DNA from: Vicugna vicugna
Taxonomy: Eukaryota
NCBI GenBank assembly: GCA_013265495.1
Contig: MU057809.1
Location: 1,665,062 to 1,729,061 of the forward strand
Direction of reading: 5' to 3'
DNA: 64,000 bases
In this document: positions 8,200 through 49,460 of the stretch, piece by piece
Layout: each line of letters begins with the position of its first letter
How positions within the stretch are numbered: the stretch's first letter is position 1
The notes under the pieces: model-generated
Seen by the model: only the letters and a program-made list of their open reading frames with translations
Database searches by the model: none
What the model was told of the DNA's origin: nothing
Made by a program: the position numbers and the translations under genes

Positions 8200-8583
8200 A
8201 GCCAAACACTAATCTATTCTCTGTTTCTACAGATTTGCCTATTCAAAACATTTTCTATAAATAGAATCATACACTATGTGGACTTTCGTGTCTGGCTTCT
8301 TTCACTTAGCAAATTGTTTCCAAGTTCCACCACGTTGTAGCATGTATCAGTATCTCATTCTTTTTATTGCCAAATATTATTCCTTTCTATAAACATGCCA
8401 CATTTTATTTATCTGTTTATCTGTTGATGGACATTTGGGTTGTTTCTACTTTTTGGCTATTGTGAATAATGCTGTGAACATTTGTGTACAAGTTTTTGTA
8501 TGGATATATGTTTTCATTAATCTTGGGAAGATACCTAAGAGTGGAATTGCTGGGTCATATGGTAGTTTCACGTTTAACATTTT

Positions 8584-8622
8584 CTGATCCGTAGTCAGAC
8601 GCGTTATCCATTGCGCTACTGG
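8584..8622 (-). pseudogene. Tailless retropseudogene of the 5' half of tRNA-Arg(ACG)
   Basis: Reverse complement CCAGTAGCGCAATGGATAACGCGTCTGACTACGGATCAG matches the recalled tRNA-Arg-ACG 5' half with one mismatch; perfect 16-bp TSD tcacgtttaacatttt at 8568-8583 and 8623-8638. Confidence 0.9.
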
Positions 8623-8896
8623 TCACGTTTAACATTTTGATGAACTAGCAGACTCTTTTCTGAAGCAGCTGCCCCATTTTGCATTCCCACAAGTGCCGTG
8701 TGAGGGTTCCAATTTCTCCATTTCTTTGTCAACACTTGCTACTGTCTTTTTTATTACAGCCATTCTAATGGGGGCAGAGTGGTATCCCAGTGTGGTTTTA
8801 ATTTGCCTTTCCTTCGTGACAGTTGGTTTTATGTTGATCTCGTATCTTTCCATCTTGCTGAAATTGATTATGAGTTCCAAGAATTTTTTAAGGAAA

Positions 8897-22749: not shown

Positions 22750-23190
22750 TTGCAGGTGGGCTGGGTAGTTCTGCTGAGCCTAGCTGAGCTCACCTGTGTC
22801 AGGGCTGGCTGGCTGTGGGTCCACCGTGGCTCATCTGGGAGCGGCAGTGTGGCTGGCCACACAGTGGTCTCTGGTGCTCCAGCAGGGAGACTGGGCTGGT
22901 AGTCATGGTGANNNNNNNNNNNNNNNNNNNNNNGGGGAGGGAGGGGGAGGGGAGGGGGGAGAGAGAGAACTAGCCTGCAGGCAGGTCACTTGAAGCCCAG
23001 ACTCCTGACTCGCACTCGACCACTTCTGCCACATCCCATTGGCCAGAGCAAATCACGTGACCAGCCCTGCTTCTGGGGGTGGGAACTAGACCCCACTTCT
23101 TGATGGGAGATGCCATGGAGCTGAGGGACAAAGCGGGTGGGTTTCGGGGTGGGGGGTGGAGAAATGGAGTCATTTTTGCAATCAACCTGG
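22750..23190 (-). mobile_element. Old MLT1 LTR spanning an assembly gap
   Basis: cacttctgccacatcccattggccagagcaaatcacgtgaccagccc...agaccccacttcttgatgggag. Confidence 0.7.
22912..22933. other. Assembly gap (22 N)
   Basis: Run of N next to a G-rich tract. Confidence 0.99.
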
Positions 23191-30755: not shown

Positions 30756-32554
30756 AGTTAGTCGGTGAAAGGTTGGGTAAACCCTAAGCCTCTCACCATT
30801 ACTCAGCTGAAAAGATGAACTCACGTGTTCACAGAGGAGCCTAAGCTTCAAATGTTGGTAAGTATGAAAAAACAGTGATGCATTTAAAAAATCTGTTACT
30901 GTGAAAGGAAGAAAGGCAGGTCCCCACCTCCCCCCGGCTGAAGAAGCGAGGCCCCGGGAGGCGGCTGCAGGCCTCATTTCCTGTGCTGCCTGCGGGTTTC
31001 GTGCAAAGTTTCTGTGCACGCAGCTCAGGAGTCCACCCGCCCGGGGAGGCCAGCCGGGGGGCAGGCGCTGCAGCCTCGGCCCTGCTTCTGCCACTCCCGT
31101 TTGCTCCCTGGCTCTGCCTCTGACCTGCTTCCAGAAGGCAGAGCCCCAGAGCAGGGGTGCAGGGGCGGCGGGACCCTGCCTGGTGCTGTCCTCTTCCCGC
31201 CACGCCTGACGTCCGGCGCAAAAGGGGAAGGTGACTGCAAACGAAACATGAAAGGAGAAAAGCTTTTTCAAGCTGGGTGCTGAAGCAGGTTTTTCAGACC
31301 CACCAGCTCCACGACAGATGCTTGTGTGCTGTGTTAGTAACCGTTATTAAAGGTACAAGAGGTCCTCGTTGGAAGAATTCAGAATGCCACCAGAACCTTC
31401 TGCAGATAAATTCAAAAAAACCCCAAACAACGAAAGAAAAAACACCCTAATCCACAACCCACTCTTATTTTTGGAACAGAATAATGGTAAAAAAAAAAAA
31501 AAAGAATTAAAATAATCACAAAGGTATGATTTAATCCTCACAAGGTTATAAATATTAATATGAAAATGCCTTTACATTGGGAAATGTTATTACACAGTAT
31601 AATGTTAATTTGATGAAAATCAATTCATTTAGCGCTCATCCATTTTTCACTTCTCTCTTTGGCTTGTGCTGATGATTTAAGAATTACAGTTTGGAAGAAT
31701 GTTTCTGACTTTGACAACTGCCGTCTGGCATCAGGGCGGAGCACAGGATTTTGACAATGCAATTATTTCTCCAGTAATGCTCTGTGATTCCCCACAGGTG
31801 AGACTCTGGTGTAGCGGAGGCAGGTGAGCGGCTGAGCTGCAAGCTGGATGTTTTTAATTAGAACTGTGATTTGATTGACATATGTCCTTCAGATAGGCAA
31901 AGGCGTGAAACATGAGACCGAAGGGGAAAACACCTGAATGTTGAAGGGCCGGGAGGTTAGCAGGATGGTGACCTATTGGTGCCCACTCTGAGCAGGCACA
32001 GTGTGGGGTCTGCTGTATTTCTATCTCCTTGAAGCCCACCAGCAGCCCTGGAGGGGAATATGTGATCACCCCCATTTTACAGAGGAAGAGCCTGAGGGTC
32101 TAGAGAGTCAGGAACTCCCCTGCAGGTGTACCCCTAGGAAATGGCTGGCATGGGCTGGAGGCATGGGGCCACTTAGCTCCATGGCCCATGTGGGCCATGA
32201 CATCGGCTACTACCTTGGACTAAAGCTAGAACTTTCAGGGTGTGCCAGGTCCCCTCGCCACGTCAGAATCGGTCCCAGTGACACCGCTCAGTGAAGGCTC
32301 ATGAAATGCTGACCAAAGTGAATTTATGCATAGTGTCAGTGGCCAGAGATGATTTTTAGATGGAGGCCACAGGACCAATGTTTTGAAAGTGTCATTCACT
32401 ATCCAAGAGCTGAACACCCGATTCCGAGTTCCACGAGGTGGGTCACTAGGTGAAGTCCTTTTTTAAAAAATGGAGCATCATGACAGAGCTGAAAGGAAGG
32501 AGGAAAAACAGCTGGCGTGAAGTTGCGTTTGGAACCCGTTCCAGCTCCCGGAGG

Positions 32555-33400
32555 AAGACGCGGAAGCCCGGCGGCGGGAGAGCGCCGGCGCGGCCGCTGG
32601 GGCCCCGCCCGCCTGTCTGATGTGCGCGCGGGGCGCCCACCGTGCGGCGCGTTAGGGAAGCAGCGCGGGCTGGGTGGGTCGTGCCGGCGTCGGGAGCGGC
32701 ACGCGGCTCCTCGGGGAAGGTCTGAAGAGCAGTCAAGCTGAGTTAGTGTCCAAGCGACCCTGTGACAGTCTTGATTACGGTCCCCAATGAGGGAGGCCTC
32801 GGCTTCGTTTTTGTTCACTGTAAGTTAAGAGACCGCCGGGCGGGTGGCTGAGAGAGACGCCGAGGAGGCGGCGGCCGCGCCGCGTCTGCGGCGTCTGGGG
32901 ACCGCACAGCAGGCCCTGGCACGCGCCCCCCCGGGGGCACGGAGGCTGTGTGTCTCAGTCGGTGCCCAGCGCGGGAGACGTGGTCAGGACGAGACAGAGC
33001 GCTCCTCCCGTCCCTGCAGCCCGCGGCCTGCACGCGCCGGAGGCCTGCGCTGGGACCAAGGGAAATGGGCGCGCGCCCTGCACGGGGGACCGCGCCCGGG
33101 GCTGCGGCGCGGCGGAGGCGGGCCGCGGACCCTGGAGCCGAGCGGACCCTTCCGCCGCGCTCTCCCGCAGACAGGGGCCTCTGGCGGGCGGGACCTCGGA
33201 CGGCTCTACCCCGAGGGCACGGGAGGTCTGCCGAGTTGTCCCAGGTCGGAGGGAAGGGGTGAGGTGGGAGGGAAGGGCTGGGACCCGGAGGGACGCCGCG
33301 TGCGTGGGGACCGGGGAGAAGCCCAGCCGCGGGTGCAGACGGATCCCTTCCCACCCCTCGCCCCCCGGGGCCGCAAGTGGTTTACTCTGCGAGTCTGTCT
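32555..33400. promoter_or_regulatory. CpG-island-like region, partly derived from L2 and L1
   Basis: Dense CpG; 32950-33340 retains L2 3' architecture and 33343-33515 is an L1 3' UTR fragment. Confidence 0.7.
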
Positions 33401-33515
33401 GTCTTGCTGATGAGTTCATTAGCGTCCTTTTTTTTTTTCTTTTGATTCCACATATGAGTGGTATCATATAGTATTTTTCTTTCTCTTTCTGGCTTACTTC
33501 ACTTAGAATGACGGT
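33343..33515 (-). mobile_element. Camelid-type L1 3' UTR/ORF2-end fragment
   Basis: gattccacatatgagtggtatcatatagtatttttctttctctttctggcttacttcacttagaatgac is nearly identical to 8009-8077. Confidence 0.9.
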
Positions 33516-34594
33516 CTCTTTTATAAATTAACAAAACGCGAGGGGCTGCAAATAAAAACTCACGCACCCCATCACCACGGGCAGCGCGTACTTTCCCGCA
33601 TGGTTGCCGTTCGTCCAAGGAAGTGAAAGCTTCGGTGACTTTTGTCAGTTTAAGTTAGACCCTTAACTCCTTAAACATATTTCCTGTACGTAACAGAATC
33701 ATGGCAGAAACATGAAGCTATCTGTCACATACACACCAGCGTCCACGGAGCAGAGGTGTAATCATGGGGGTGCCTGGATACCAGAACACTTGTGCAAATG
33801 AAAATTGATTTTCTCGAGAATTCTTCGCCTGGTGAAATAAATTAAATCTACATTTACTCCTATTTGTTTAAAAAGCTCTTTGTTAAAATAAGTACAGCAG
33901 TATATAGACATGATCCAATAAATTAGAGGAGGATAAATTATACCTAATAAGATTCTGCACAGAGACCACACACAGAAGGAACCCAGGGGAGGTGCGCTGG
34001 TGAAAGCCACTTAAATGTTTGGACTAATTCTCTTTGTAATGATAAAACTGACAAACATATGTTTGGGCCTCTTCAAGCTTGTTTAATTTTATTTTTTTCC
34101 AAATCAGTTTTATTATTATTTTAATTGGGGAAAAATAAGCTACGGAGTTTTCACTTAGCCTGGAGAAATGCAAGTTGAACTAGGTCTTAAAATTGAATGC
34201 AGACTGAATGGCAAGGAACAAACATCTTTAATGAGAGGAAACTGCATTACCAGCCCTGCATGAAAATGTGTTCCACCCTGAGCACACCAGCCTGCCTCTC
34301 AGATTTTCACTTTCCCCCCCAGCAAAAGGGAGATTTAAAAAGCTGTGAGTGTTGAGTGAGTGTCTAGTCAGGACCTGGCAGCTGCCACTGAGGGCAACCT
34401 GGCTGGTGCTGGTGTGGGTGGGGAGGGTTTTGCTTCTTGGCTATGTTTATGAATGCGCTGGCATCCCACGACAGGGGTGCTGGTTGGTCTGCAGAAAAAC
34501 GAAGTGGGCGTCTGCTAGCTGCTCTCAGCCCGCTGGGGGAATGTCAAAACGACAGACGAAAATTTGCTAATTCCACGTTCAATTTTTTTTCTCA

Positions 34595-38313: not shown

Positions 38314-39077
38314 TTCTAACAGGAAGCACAGGAGAAAATCTTACGACCTTGACGAAGATTTTTCTTGTCAGGACACAAAAAGCGCTAGGCACAAAATGAA
38401 AAATTGGATGCATTGGCCATCATCAAAATTAAACGTTTCTGCTCATCGCAAGACAGCGTTAAGAAAATGCTCATCAAAAGACATCATTAAGACAAGACGG
38501 GCACAGACCAGATAAAATAGTGACAGCACATGTATCAGACAAAGGATTTGCATCCAGAATATGTAGAGAACTCTGCAAAGTAACAATAAAGGAACAACAG
38601 CTGATTTTTAAAGTGAACAAAAGACGTGACCATGCCCTTACAGAAGATCTAAGAATGGCCAATACATCTATCAAAGATTCTTAACATCTTAGTCACTGAG
38701 GAAATGCAAATTATAAACACAGCAGGTACAACAGCTAAGATAAAAAGGAGTGACAGGAGCAAATGTTGGCAAAGATGTGGAGACCCTGCAACTCTCAGAT
38801 GCTGCTGATGGAAATGTGAAATGGCGCAATCTCTTTGGAGGACTGTTTGTTACATAGTGAAGCATGTAACTACCATATGACTCTATCAAGTCCTCTTTGG
38901 TGTTTATCCAAGAGACGTGGAAACATATGTTCGTACTATGGCAGGTAAGAGAGTGTGTGTAGCAGCCCCACCAAAGCAGTCCCAAGTGGAAAACAGCCAG
39001 AGTGTGCATCACTGGAAGACTAAATAGTGGTATATTCAGGCAATGGAATACTACTCAGCAATAAAAAGGACAAACCA

Positions 39078-39578
39078 CACGCATACCTCCTAATCTTCTG
39101 CTTCATGTTGCTCTAATTTGCAGATACTGTATTTTGCTTTTTTTTTTTAACAAATTGAAGTTTTGTGGCAACTCTTCATCAAACAAGATTATGGGCACCA
39201 TGTTTCTAACAGCCTTTGCTAAGTTCATGTCTCTGTGTCACATTTTGGTGATTCTCATGATATTTCACACTTTTCCATTATTACATTTGTTATAGAGATC
39301 TGTGATCAGTGGTCTTTGATGTTACTATTGCAAAAAGATTATGACTCGCTGAGGGCTCAGATGATGGTTAGCATCTTTTAGTAAGAAAGTACTTTTTAGT
39401 TAAGGTATGTGCACTGTTTTTTAGACATAATGCTATTGTACACTTAATAGACTGCAGTATAAACATAACTCTTATATGCATTGGGAAATGAAAAACTCCA
39501 TGTGACTCATTTTACTGTGGTATCTGTTTTATTGGGGTGGTCTGAGAGCAGACCTACACTGTCTCTAAGGGACGGCTG
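39078..39578 (+). mobile_element. Tigger1 internal-deletion derivative (Tigger1a-like MITE)
   Basis: Starts cacgcatacctc (TIR CAGGCATACCTC), caaattgaagttttgtggcaac, gatctgtgatcagtggtctttgatgttactattg joined to aaaaagattatgactcgctgagggctcagatgat, ends ...ggctg followed by TA. Confidence 0.9.
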
Positions 39579-39609
39579 TACTGGTACATGCAGTGAAATG
39601 GGTGATGAT

Positions 39610-40515
39610 GATTTTTTATCAAAGATGATTTTTAGAGCAGTCTTAGGTCTACCGTAAAAACACGAGGAAGGTACAGAGATTTCCTGTACATCCCCTACCC
39701 CTGTATACACATAGCTCCCCCATTGCCAACGTCACTCAAGAGAATGGTAACCTTTTTTACCACGGATGAACCTACACTGACACATCAAAATCCTCAAAGT
39801 CTATAGCTTACACGAGGGTTCCCTCTCGGTGGTGTCCATTCTCTGGGTTTGGACCAATGACCGGCATCCATTATTATAATATCACACAGAGTATTTTCTA
39901 CCCTAAGAATCCTCTGTGCTCTGCCTGTTCATCTCTGGCGTCTTCCATCCTGTCCTGACCCCTGGCAACCACTCATCTTTTTATTATTTCCATAATTTTG
40001 CCTTTTCCCGAATGTCATGCAGTTGGCATCGTACAGTCTATAGCTTTTGCACACTGGCTGCTTGCACTTAGTGATATGCATTTAGGTTTCCTCCATAGCT
40101 TTTCACAAATTGATAGCTCATTTCTTTTTACTGTGGGATTGTGTCTCATTGCCCGAATGTATCACAGTTTCTTCACTCACCCACTGAAGGACAAGTTGGC
40201 TGCTTCTGAGTTTGGCAATGACGAATGAGGCTGCTGTACACACCCGTGTGAGGTTTCTGTAAGGACGTAGTTTTCAGCGTCCCTGGGTAAGCACCAAGGG
40301 GCACGGCTGCTGGGCCACACGGCGAGGTGCGTTTAGTTCTGTGAGAGACCACCAGCGGTCTTCCCCGTCGCGGGAAGTGGCCGCGCCGCCCCGCAGCCCC
40401 CGCGGCGGCGGACGAGCGCTCCCGTCGCTCCGCGTCCTCGCCGGCGTTCGGCGCGGTCGGCGCTGCGGATTCCGGCTGTTCTAGTGGCTGTGTGTGGTGC
40501 CCCGTCTTCTAACTT
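39610..40515 (-). mobile_element. L1MC-like 3' region; right part GC-converted
   Basis: tttttagagcagtcttaggt...gatgaacctacactgacacatca...cctggcaaccactcatctttttattatttccataattttgccttttcc. Confidence 0.85.
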
Positions 40516-40704
40516 GAGTGATTCTTAAGAACCGCTGGAGCGAGCAGCACGCAAAGCAGGATGCGCCGCGCGGCCGCGCTCACACGAAGCGCCAGCGCGG
40601 CGAGGCGAGCAGCGACGTCGGAGGCCGGAGCGCGTCTGCCGGGCGGCGGGCGGCGACAGACGCGAGCGAGAGGGCGCTCCGCGGGGCGCCGGGGACGTCC
40701 GGCC

Positions 40705-41150
40705 TCGCTGCCCGGCGCGGTGGCCACTAGCCCCGCTGCGCGCAGGGAATTGAGGAAGTGGGTGTCACATTTTATTTAACTTTAGTTAAATTGTAGGTTT
40801 AAAGCTTAAAACTGAAGCAGTTGAGAGTATTTTCCCCTTAAACACAGCTCTTTTGTTTTGGTAGGGCTTCATCTCACGTTAACAGTTTAGAAGGCGGCAT
40901 CTGAACTGAGCTGTGCCAGAAGTATAAAATACACACCAGGTTACGAAGACTTGTTACCCAACAAGAGTAAAATTTTTATTATAGTTTAAATCTTCCTTAC
41001 GTGTTAAAATGATACTGTTTTTAATGCACTGGGCTAAAAGGTGGTATTAAAGTTAATTTCACCTCTTTCTTTTTACTTGTCTTAATGTGGCTACTAGGAA
41101 ATGTGAAATGACATGTGTGCTCTCATTCTGTTGCTACCGGACAGGGCGCG
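40705..41150 (+). mobile_element. MER33/Charlie1-like hAT element
   Basis: ggtggccactagcc...gtataaaatacacaccagg...aatgtggctactaggaaatgtgaaatgacatgtgtgctc...ggacagggcg. Confidence 0.8.
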
Positions 41151-42940
41151 GCTCTGTCTTGCTTTGGGCGGTGGGTGTGCCTGAGTGAGGCGACCGTCAA
41201 AGCTCAGGGAACCGAAGGCCTCAGAGCTGTGCCTTTTACGGTATGTTAATTACAGCTCCACAACCCCTGCTTGACTAATTTATGGCTGAAGAAATCAGGT
41301 GAGGGGAGGGCCAGCGACCGGAGGCCAAGGAGGGCACTTCCGGGGAGCGGGAAGGTTCTTCCTGGCGGGGAGGCTGATGAGACAAGTGAACGCTCGCTGA
41401 ACGTGGTGTTGGAAGGTCAACATATAATGAAGATACATTATTATTTGTAAGATCAATTGCTATATAGAGGTGATACATAGACACAGATATGTACATGTCA
41501 TCTCTATGTAGAAATCTTTAATGTCAATAAGATGTATAAAATATATATGGTGCCCAATATGTATCTCTTATATATATATTTCTTTCTTTAATACAAAGGT
41601 AAAAAATACCTGTTGGATACTGACTGTGAGTCTTTCTTTAAAATTGGGCTTTGCTTTATAGTGTGTCCAAGGAGTTTGATCTTTTGCATTTAAAAGGCAC
41701 ATTTCTGCAGAGCAGCTGGCCAATGAGTCAGGCGCTGCCCTGGCAGCCCCCGTGTTTCACAAGCAACAAGGTTCCGCAGCCCAGGACTGGTTCCCTCATA
41801 CCCAAGTCTCTCTGGCTGGAGGACTTGCCCCGTCTGAAGGAGCGGAGACCGTGGCCCAGCTGCTCCCTCCGCCTGCGTCCCGATAAAGCAGCCCCCTGCG
41901 CCGCGCCACACCCAGCCTCCCGTCAGACCTTGTCACCCTCAAAGTAAACTCCAGCACCAACGTGTGTGGGCTCGAGCTCGGTTTTCAGGGGAACTAAAAC
42001 CTTTCGACCAAGAAGACTGTTCCGTCCGCTGCAGCCAAGCCACCTGGTGACATGAAGGACACAGACTCTGAACCAAAGGTGACAGGGCTGAGGCGGCCCT
42101 CTGGCAGAGGGTAGGGGTTAATCGCTCAGACCTGTGTGTCCAGACCACAGTTCTGGGCTGCTTCAGGCACAAACACCAGATACACACTGGGGCTCTCCAC
42201 TGGGGGTGTGGAGGGACAGGAAGTCAGCCCTGGGCCAGCAGGGGGAGGTGGACCCAGACTGTGTGGCGGGGGGCAGGCTGGCCAGCAGCTCAAGGTGATG
42301 TGGTCAACCTCAGCTCCATCCTCCTCTTTGGGGGGGAGGGGTCAGGCCTGTGGATACGGCGGGGCTGTGTGAATGGAGGAAGGATGGAGGGACAGCCAGC
42401 GCTGTGATGGAGGTAGGTGTGAGCTTCAGACCTGGTGGACCTGGGCCGTGGACACAGGCCGTGATGCTGGCAATGCAAACTTGCTCAAATTACTTAATTT
42501 CTCCAAATTTCATTTCCTCTCCTGGAACAGGAGGTAATCATAGTGCTTACAGCGTTGTTTGGGAGACAAGGTAAATGGGCTAACGTAGGCCAAGTGCCTG
42601 GTTAAAGGTATTGCTGGTTCTGGGGGTGGTTCCTCAGCAGGACCCCAGCCAGTGACTGGACAAAAGGCAGAGGGGAGAATCTCCCAGGAGCTGGTCAGGG
42701 CCACAGCCCCGGACAGCCCGGGACAGGCTCACAGGAGAGGGCCGGCGGCTAGTCAAAGCCCGGAGCAGAGCTGGGCCTTAGGCTGGGTTCTCCAGAAGCT
42801 GATCGTCAGGGAAGGTTCGAGTGAAAGTGGAATCCTCTGAGACAAAATGTTCCCAGGAAACCTGGGCGGGGAGAAGGAAGGTGGGGCCAGGAAGGGAGGA
42901 GGCCGAGGGAGAGGCGTGCGGTCGCCGGAGGGCGCCCAGC

Positions 42941-43198
42941 GAGCCGGCCCTCCTGTGCTTGTGCCCCTCCCCCATCGAGCAGGGCAGCCCTCTCCCCTTC
43001 GAGTAGGGCAGACCTGTTTGATGGGAGGCCACAGGGCTCCTGAGCCTAGGTCACAGACACGTGGGGAGAGCCGGCCCTCCTGTGCTTGTGCCCCAAGTGG
43101 CCCTCTCCCCCATCGAGCAGGGCAGCCCTCTCCCCTTCGAGTAGGGCAGACCTGTTTGATGGGAGGCCACAGGGCTCCTGAGCCTAGGTCACAGACAC
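42941..43198. repeat. Tandem duplication (120 bp + 131 bp)
   Basis: 42941-43060 repeated at 43068-43198, identical apart from an 11-bp indel. Confidence 0.95.
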
Positions 43199-43485
43199 TG
43201 CGGTCACATCCTTGCTTCCTGGCCCTGGGGGAGGCCAGCCACCGTGCTGGGGGGCCACTCAAGCAGCCTGTGAGGAAGCCCCCAGGCCCAGCTGAGCCTT
43301 CAGATGAAGCCATCTTCACTGACATCCTTACTGCAGCCTCATGAGAGACCCAGACCCAGGGGGGCCCAGCTAAGCCACATCCAAGTTCCTAACTTACAGA
43401 AACTGGGAGGTAATAAATGTGTGTGATTATTTAAGCCACACAATTTAGGGTGCATTGGTTGACATGGCAACAGAGAACTGATAAA
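43190..43485 (+). mobile_element. MLT1 (E/F-like) LTR 3' part
   Basis: gagccttcagatga...ctgcagcctcatgagagaccc...cccagctaagccacatccaagttcctaacttacagaaactg. Confidence 0.8.
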
Positions 43486-48283: not shown

Positions 48284-49006
48284 GGGTTGCGGTGGGGGGG
48301 CGGGGTTGAAACCTCCACCAACAAGCCATGATGCCAGTACAACAGACTGATTACATTCTAAAGTTTGACATTCAGCTGCCTGTGTTCAGATCTCACCTCT
48401 GCCACTCAGTTGTGGAGCCCTGACCTCACGAGCCTCAGTTTCCCCGTCAGTGAAATGGGGCTGATCATGGTACAAACTTGTACCATTTAAGCTCCGCGTG
48501 GATGCAAAGAATGTAAAATTCAGCTCAAACTGAGATGGTCCCTTGTTTATTTCCACTTCTGGGCAGTGTCAGATTCATCATAATATAATTATAATATGAC
48601 TGCCAACCAGTCCTGGAGCTAGAAATGTCACAGGAGAGTGATAAAGCATCTTTCATACAGCCCCCATTAAAACCTCCCCCTAGGGTTCATGGACTGATTT
48701 GGGTGGTTTGACCACATCTGAACCAGTCACGGTCCAGGGCACGAGATCACATTGGTCAGATCAGGCCTGAGGGAACTACCCTTTCTCTAGAGCAGAAGTG
48801 GACTTATCTCCAAAGAACACTCCTGAATGGAGATCAGATACTCATGGGAGAGTCATGAAGACTAAGAAGTTAACACCTGCACACAGTGAGTGCTCAATAA
48901 ATGTTAACTGTTTATTGGTTGCTATTATTTTCCCAGTGAAATCCACTTAACCAACAGTCTTATGAAAAAATTTATTCTACTGAAAATGTTTCTGCCCATA
49001 TCTCTT

Positions 49007-49378
49007 CACCATCACCATCGTCATCATGATCACCTCCATCACCACCATCATCATCAGCATCATCACCACCACTATCACCATCATCATCACCACCATTGTC
49101 ACCACCACCATCATCACCATTATCACCACCATCACCACCACCATCACCACCATCATCACCATCACCATCATCATCATCACCACCACTATCACCATCACCA
49201 TCATCGTCACCACCATTGTCACCACCACCATCACCATTATCACCACCATCACCACCACCATTATCACCACCATCATCACCATCACCACCATCACCACCAT
49301 CATCACCACTATCACCATCACCACCACTATCACCATCACCACCACCACCATCACCACCATCACACGGACACCATCACT
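49007..49378. repeat. Imperfect (CAC/CAT)n trinucleotide array
   Basis: ~370 bp of caccatcaccaccat variants, between MIR remnants. Confidence 0.95.
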
Positions 49379-49460
49379 GGCTGAGTGGCTGCTGAGTTGC
49401 CGACACTATTTCAGATGACTCACATGCCTGTAACTAATCCCTGGAACAAGTTGTGACGTG

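Follow-up and report, generated by a model that had tools for sequence, protein, structure and literature searches.

How can a CpG island arise where the surrounding DNA is AT-rich and made of old repeats? We asked this of a single locus in the vicugna (Vicugna vicugna), a GC-rich patch at positions 40215–40745 of a 64,000-nucleotide stretch (assembly GCA_013265495.1, contig MU057809.1, positions 1,665,062 to 1,729,061 of the forward strand), which we call the window and whose coordinates are used throughout. An earlier interpretation of this DNA from its letters alone, hereafter the sequence-only reading, had proposed that the patch is a CpG island built from three AT-rich transposon fossils by one-way replacement of A and T by G and C, and that a strong hotspot of GC-biased gene conversion (gBGC) was responsible. 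The analysis below supports the transposon origin and the one-way change, and a long-lived, narrow gBGC hotspot is probably, although not provably, how the change came about. The patch is real and stands well above chance in composition: its 531 bp have a GC content of 0.708, against 0.405 and 0.415 in the 1-kb flanks beside it (ratio about 1.75), and they contain 80 CpG against 83 GpC dinucleotides, which gives an observed/expected CpG ratio (o/e) of 1.21. Defined by sequence, a CpG island is 200 bp or longer and has a GC content of at least 0.5–0.55 and a CpG o/e of at least 0.6–0.65, and the patch lies above each of these values; an o/e above 1 also suggests that the island may be unmethylated in the germline. 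The immediate surroundings are AT-rich, but the window as a whole has a GC content of 0.508 and a CpG o/e of 0.49, and 36 patches in its 64 kb pass island thresholds (in 200-bp windows, GC of 0.55 or more and o/e of 0.65 or more), which is many for mammalian DNA. The patch contains no tandem array and no coding signal, all six frames being open, and a search of Rfam found no RNA family in it and a single weak chance match outside it.

To the left, the patch is made of L1 sequence lying on the minus strand. We searched the 2.03-Gb assembly with positions 39950–40800 as query and scored 40 rows of 1,277 first-look candidates, 39 of which were other repeat copies. From about 39605 onwards, all 29 of the L1 loci fetched from the genome align collinearly with the window under sensitive scoring, as the sequence-only reading had supposed for L1 in general, and 13 of the 29 extend to 40487–40520 with E values of 1e-73 to 1e-122. 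The family's open frame runs on the minus strand of the window; a BLASTP comparison of the minus-strand frame at 40173–40508 with the open frame of a family copy gave 22/50 identities (E = 9e-07). We take L1, L1M and L1MC to be the appropriate names for these elements; Pfam, with 0 families for all seven L1-frame open reading frames (ORFs) tried, and a protein database search that returned 20 homologues, none of them carrying a name, gave no confirmation. Another L1 within the window had been cited as a counterpart, with 8674–8689 set against 40386–40401. Both strings are present as written, and pairwise alignment of the two regions is collinear overall (8400–8766 with 40159–40525, score 111.4), but it places 40401 opposite 8639 rather than 8689. 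The shift is due to a segment of about 55 bp (8573–8630) that the L1 at 8400–8766 carries in addition and that is flanked by a short repeated word. The dinucleotide correspondences themselves, CA at 40387, TG at 40392 and AC at 40401, are borne out by the majority among 27 copies.

The middle of the patch was harder to trace, and an ordinary search of the genome with it finds only itself. Its source lies about 1.5 kb upstream in the window, where a plus-strand L1 much older than the minus-strand one (729 first-look candidates in the genome) breaks off at about 39075; the copies in the genome that reach this break all stop at 39066–39091. As reference for the middle piece we took the majority of 18 copies downstream of the break. 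Positions 40536–40706 align to this 18-copy continuation with a score of 43.5, whereas 300 dinucleotide shuffles gave a mean of 20.9 (sd 2.9) and a maximum of 33.8, so that 0/300 reached it. This alignment includes 40563–40589, in which an L1M 3' motif had been recognized. A direction-neutral, transition-tolerant alignment matches 40510–40706 to reference positions 36–261, and the break is at reference position 20, so the L1 resumes 16 reference positions past the point at which it was interrupted. Matrices that tolerate S→W transitions (from G or C, strong, to A or T, weak) or W→S transversions score just 11.8 and 16.6 on the same piece. When the majority of the neighbouring minus-strand L1 was tried as the source instead, the score was 20.0 and 32/300 shuffles did as well, which is not significant. 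Counts for this piece were taken from the pairwise alignment, as MAFFT --addfragments was too gapped here (201 bases over 390 columns). By alignment, the middle of the island is thus the 3' end of an L1 that later insertions have split. Further repeat-like material separates the two L1 pieces (39079–39604); it might have been the 3' tail of the minus-strand L1, a possibility that we rejected because none of the 29 L1 loci aligns there at E < 1e-5.

The right edge of the patch is formed by the left terminal piece of a short DNA transposon, presumably MER33. The window matches both ends of the family, for which the genome gave 396 first-look candidates; 25 copies share a conserved block of about 310–330 columns, where a unit of about 320 bp is expected of a MER33-like element. 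At the anchor, 13 of 14 bases match the left end of the 25-copy family, and a score tolerant of W→S change reached 25.6, whereas the best of 500 shuffles scored 20.2. The MER33 motif had been assigned to 40705–40735; the match to the family's left end is sound, and its location, 40707–40732, is slightly inside that span. MAFFT had placed the left end at 40848–40900 (about 23/51 identities), a position that we rejected, the placement at 40701–40764 being best even under plain scoring. The two L1 pieces and the MER33-like element together cover the patch, all of which aligns to repeat families of its own genome, and the entire island is therefore transposon-derived.

With these references, the ancestral base could be estimated across the patch, and we counted as a substitution every site at which the window departs from the majority base among the other genomic copies. 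In the minus-strand L1 between 40200 and 40500, there were 69 W→S transitions and 9 W→S transversions, against 4 S→W transitions and 0 S→W transversions, that is, 78/171 sites against 4/116 (Fisher p = 5e-17). The adjoining flank of the same element, 39600–40200, was balanced, with 37 transitions in each direction and with 23 W→S and 4 S→W transversions. We then treated each of the other 29 copies in the same way in a leave-one-out control on the same columns. They have 7–32 W→S and 7–33 S→W transitions, where the window has 69 and 4 (W→S p = 8e-28, S→W p = 1e-05), and the one-way pattern is absent from every one of them. The middle piece behaves like the left one: W→S changes make up 77 of the 197 columns of 40510–40706 (66 transitions and 11 transversions) and S→W changes 8 (7 and 1), and 99 columns are the same. 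Further to the right, the stretch 40890–41160 is mildly biased in the same direction (W→S 45/199, S→W 6/58).

Combining the elements, we defined a core of about 380 bp, 40300–40480 plus 40540–40740. There, 143 of 217 ancestral A/T sites (66%) are now G/C, through 126 transitions and 17 transversions, and only 6 of 152 G/C sites became A/T, which upholds the claim of a one-way change. A two-state fit gave W→S of 0.63 against 0.13 (about 4.7 times baseline) and S→W of 0.047 against 0.20 (about 4.3 times below); by this fit, G/C loss is truly lower and not merely reverted. Nor is the deficit just an absence of CpG decay, because CpG is absent from the L1 majority. Of the island's CpGs, 34 could be scored; 15 derive from TG, 11 from CA and 8 from other dinucleotides, and no more than about 3 look like ancestral CpGs that were retained. 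A W→S excess joined to an S→W deficit, relative both to the flanks and to other copies, is the pattern of a gBGC tract. The patch is not a general mutation hotspot, since changes between A and T (6/292 against 22/600 in the flanks) and between G and C (12/192 against 13/363) are not raised overall.

The change follows position rather than element, as the sequence-only reading had argued. The split L1 provides the most direct comparison: the half beside the patch has W→S changes at 77/121 sites, whereas the half 1.5 kb away, 38610–39078, has them at 53/255 (34 transitions, 19 transversions; S→W 24/135) against the same kind of 18-copy majority (p = 1e-15). Across three elements that differ in kind and orientation, the W→S fraction rises and falls with distance along the patch (Table 1). 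The fading that had been described on both sides is present. Its borders are asymmetric, however, gradual over about 200 bp on the left and sharp over about 60 bp on the right, and the profile has two lobes separated by a central dip at 40480–40540, where the two L1 pieces meet. The dip is not a chance effect, its binomial p value being 9e-07 against a rate of 0.68, about 68% of sites being converted on either side.

Table 1. Features of the patch and its surroundings, with W→S fractions per 20 bp (strand given as + or -;. for none)
Feature	Positions	Strand	Remarks
Left part of old plus-strand L1, broken at about 39075	38610..39078	+	Not GC-enriched; internal control
AT-rich repeat-like material between the two L1 pieces	39079..39604	.	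T-run near 39139-39150
L1 fragment (3' part of ORF2), antisense	39605..40510	-	GC enrichment grows from about 40280 to its 5' end
CpG island (sequence criteria)	40215..40745	.	
Left converted lobe	40300..40480	.	W→S fraction 0.40-0.91
Central dip, largely unconverted, at junction of two L1 pieces	40480..40540	.	11/38 W sites; GC 0.47-0.55
3' end (right part) of the plus-strand L1 broken at about 39075	40510..40703	+	Heavily GC-enriched
Right converted lobe	40540..40740	.	W→S fraction 0.44-0.93
Left terminal piece of MER33-like short DNA transposon	40701..40764	.	GC-enriched to about 40740
AT-rich old low-copy repeat segment, sharp right border	40776..40898	.	GC 0.28-0.35; three other own-genome matches, 72-76% identity
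Remainder of MER33-like element	40899..41148	.	nhmmer E = 1.4e-61 against 25-copy profile
Profile, most bins	before 40280		W→S fraction 0.1-0.2
Profile	40380-40420		W→S fraction 0.8-0.9
Profile	40480-40540		W→S fraction 0.17-0.43
Profile	40540-40720		W→S fraction 0.53-0.93

What could rewrite two-thirds of the A/T sites in such a zone? We infer recombination as the cause, a bias in fixation rather than in mutation, and an unmethylated state of the DNA. In the explanation that we favour, the three transposon fragments would first have been in place, and a zone of about 0.5 kb would then have come under long and strongly GC-biased fixation, most likely through gBGC at a stable hotspot of meiotic recombination such as occurs in germline-unmethylated DNA. 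Mismatches in the heteroduplex around repeated breaks would have been resolved towards G:C, such that A/T-to-G/C alleles reached fixation at about five times the flank rate and G/C-to-A/T alleles at about a quarter of it; new CpGs would have been kept, and the zone may thereby have crossed the thresholds of a CpG island. A fixation bias towards G/C is favoured because it accounts for both the gain and the reduced loss, and among known processes it is gBGC at a stable hotspot that behaves in this way. Published work offers precedents: many new non-genic CpG islands of the dog are ascribed to gene conversion (PMC4350167), 33 of 52 mammals are reported to have active PRDM9-independent hotspots at unmethylated loci (PMC11161765), CpG transitions are reported as the class most affected (bioRxiv 10.1101/2020.09.25.313411), and the ability of biased gene conversion to form CpG islands is stated in PMC3469460.

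Several observations weigh against this explanation. The origin from transposons and the one-way, strand-symmetric and positional character of the change all stand, but gBGC predicts a bias on W→S changes of both classes, transitions and transversions, and for transversions none was found. W→S transversions are not raised locally (20/292 W sites in the patch against 42/600 in the window's flanks), and the ratio of transitions to transversions, 135:20 in the two L1 pieces, differs from 385:164 in other copies (p = 1e-05) and from 71:42 in the flanks (p = 4e-06); expressed as rates of patch to flank estimated from the counts, transversions stand at about 1.3 times and transitions at about 5 times. 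According to the human pedigrees quoted in the same preprint (10.1101/2020.09.25.313411), the bias is 0.70 for transitions and 0.64–0.68 for transversions, and with values so nearly equal, a parallel rise of transversions would be expected. Conversion is also weakest in the centre of the patch, where a single break site predicts a maximum. In the plus-strand L1 piece taken alone, the S→W deficit is non-significant (8/76 against 24/135, p = 0.23), and the patch falls short of the rule for GC-peaks quoted in the dog paper (PMC4350167), a 500-bp window with GC 50% above the 10-kb background: its GC of 0.720 against 0.515 (0.504 without the peak) makes a ratio of 1.40–1.43. CpG-creating transitions are favoured, a preference that does not fit gBGC simply, yet T>C change is raised in every 3' context, which counts for gBGC. 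In the patch it affects 49/66 TpG, 26/42 TpA, 36/70 TpT and 12/34 TpC sites, and in the flank 10/91, 10/80, 11/101 and 5/63, giving rate ratios of 11.7, 7.2, 6.3 and 5.3, respectively.

The restriction to transitions, the TpG>CpG context as the one most strongly raised and the CpG o/e above 1 could instead point to a local bias in mutation, which would act on a germline-unmethylated zone where repair yields G/C and CpG directly, be it through aberrant base excision by thymine-DNA glycosylases at TpG and CpA or through some other source of A:T>G:C transitions. Such a route has a biochemical basis in PMC4041421, where thymine-DNA glycosylase (TDG) is shown to excise T opposite damaged A in TpG and an origin of CpG islands from this activity is proposed, and the missing significance of the S→W deficit in the right-hand L1 piece agrees with it. 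Its footprint, however, would be a gain restricted to TpG and CpA changing to CpG, whereas here T>C is raised 5–6 times before a pyrimidine as well (48/104 against 16/164, p = 2e-11). S→W change is about four times below baseline after reversion is allowed for, where a pure gain predicts no deficit, an argument that becomes marginal if the gain came in a recent burst; and no such process has been documented on a zone that started AT-rich and CpG-poor. We consider a mutational bias unlikely, although it is the likeliest of the rivals. An equally tentative proposal keeps gene conversion and narrows its bias to transition mismatches, of the kind handled by a G–T glycosylase, with the strongest effect where a CpG is made and with heteroduplex flanking a fixed zone of breaks on both sides. 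The unconverted core of about 60 bp would then mark where repair runs without heteroduplex.

The remaining alternatives have far less to recommend them. Selection may have turned transposon sequence into a functional CpG-island promoter or regulatory element, or maintained it as one, which would be compatible with gBGC. The patch does have the composition of an island, and chromatin factors can be recruited by clusters of unmethylated CpG, as noted in PMC3469460, but we found nothing that speaks for selection directly, and the open frames, the want of a coding signal and the empty Rfam result speak against it. So does the uniform spread of the 143 changes among 217 W sites over contexts and strands, which resembles a neutral bias and not selection for motifs, and we regard selection as improbable. 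A-to-I RNA editing of element transcripts before insertion leaves clusters of A>G and T>C, the signature of hyper-editing. In the patch, the two occur at equal rates on one strand within each element (T>C at 43/113 and A>G at 33/74 sites in the minus-strand L1), neither lobe is strand-asymmetric, and a test for transcription-coupled asymmetry found none; the gradient, moreover, crosses two L1 pieces in opposite orientation as well as a DNA transposon, whereas a retrocopy hyper-edited by ADAR carries A>G on one strand of one element. Strand symmetry together with dependence on position across elements excludes that one RNA strand was edited before insertion; the sequence-only reading, too, had argued against RNA editing. 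An artefact of assembly is also improbable. Among 20 run rows from 9 studies that contain 39900–41200 wholly or partly, 17 sequencing runs, under two organism labels, contain at least half of the sampled words, with shares of 0.68–0.90; as the patch makes up 41% of this interval, a share of 0.90 implies that most of its words must be present. No RNA run is among the listed runs that contain the interval, and the only assembly gap in the window is a run of 22 N at 22912–22933. Editing and artefact taken together are very unlikely. There is, finally, hardly any room for the view that the island is old non-repeat sequence with chance matches to transposons, or that it retains ancestral CpGs of an L1 copy that was never methylated. 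Sequence made of G and C is poor in information per base, and one test of the middle piece did fail, as described for the neighbouring L1, but with the right references the observed scores were reached by 0/300 shuffles for the middle piece and 0/500 for the MER33-like end, the split L1 resumes almost where it had stopped, and the few CpGs that look ancestral leave little to be retained from an L1 majority that has none.

A related gradient was seen at a second, larger island in the window (32401–33480; 1,080 bp, GC 0.67, CpG o/e 0.95). It adjoins the 3' piece of a young minus-strand L1 at 33336–33519, which is 85–90% identical to the 39 other matches listed from the genome and, by comparison with 6 copies, is without about 260 bases of its 3' end. 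In this element, W→S changes affect 13/33 W sites in 33320–33400 and 2/54 in 33440–33520, a result that counts in favour of gBGC and suggests a regional, recent bias along the edges of islands. A continuation of the young L1 to the left of 33336 was not significant (23/200 shuffles).

The L1 flank of the first island (39600–40200 and 38610–39078) also exceeds the average copy of the genome in W→S change. Between 39600 and 40200, the window exceeds the pooled copies in W→S transversions (23/345 against 264/9748) as well as in W→S transitions (37/345 against 722/9748), and its S→W changes are near those of the pool (41/228 against 1103/6364). The excess points to a regional GC bias that includes transversions, unlike the local one. 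Elsewhere in the window, the same peptide of about 30 residues occurs twice in frames of both strands at 42840–43390, suggesting a local tandem duplication in a GC-rich stretch, and a long simple repeat at 48900–49420 encodes histidine runs in one frame and Gly/Asp or Ile/Thr in others.

Base by base, the locus demonstrates that AT-rich junk can become a full CpG island, with GC above 0.7 and o/e above 1, even where no GC-rich seed existed beforehand. For annotation, this means that computational CpG islands of such a sort need not be promoters, and for tests of selection, that a dense cluster of substitutions can be neutral. The scarcity of extra transversions and the two-lobed shape could help to decide how the bias works, if they recur at many loci. 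Should the restriction to transition mismatches prove correct, single loci at which the ancestral base is known at every site would resolve the repair pathway behind mammalian gBGC.

Among known systems, the closest in the sources at hand are the GC-peaks and dog-specific CpG islands of PMC4350167. Like them, the patch is a short, non-genic, computational island (0.3–1 kb) attributed to biased W→S change, and it sits in a GC-rich region with many such patches, here the 36 counted above. It is unlike them in that every ancestral base can be read from transposon families and two-thirds of the W sites have changed, in that its excess is limited to transitions and stays below their 50% rule, and in that the locus is known from sequence alone; the dog paper's text, as available, contains 0 mentions of repeats or of transitions versus transversions. 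The PRDM9-independent hotspots described in PMC11161765 are stable and long-lived enough to rewrite a locus, and they were detected by the same W→S signature; that study, unlike ours, averages thousands of conserved loci and excludes CpG sites, and its main text names no camelid. TDG repair as reported in PMC4041421 shares with the patch a transition-only gain of G/C and a preference for making CpG, but the mechanism set out there requires TpG, and the patch converts T before C or T at 5–6 times the flank rate too. The human 'CpG beacons' and gBGC-linked accelerated regions discussed in PMC3469460 resemble it in their local rise of CpG and GC, read there as neutral, and differ in scale, with a few tens of changes per kb on one short branch, whereas the patch has more than 140 in about 380 bp, probably accumulated over a long time. 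Islands made by gene conversion are thus already in print, and as a single case the vicugna locus confirms a published idea and opens no new one: it is a clear single-locus example of a process described genome-wide in dogs.

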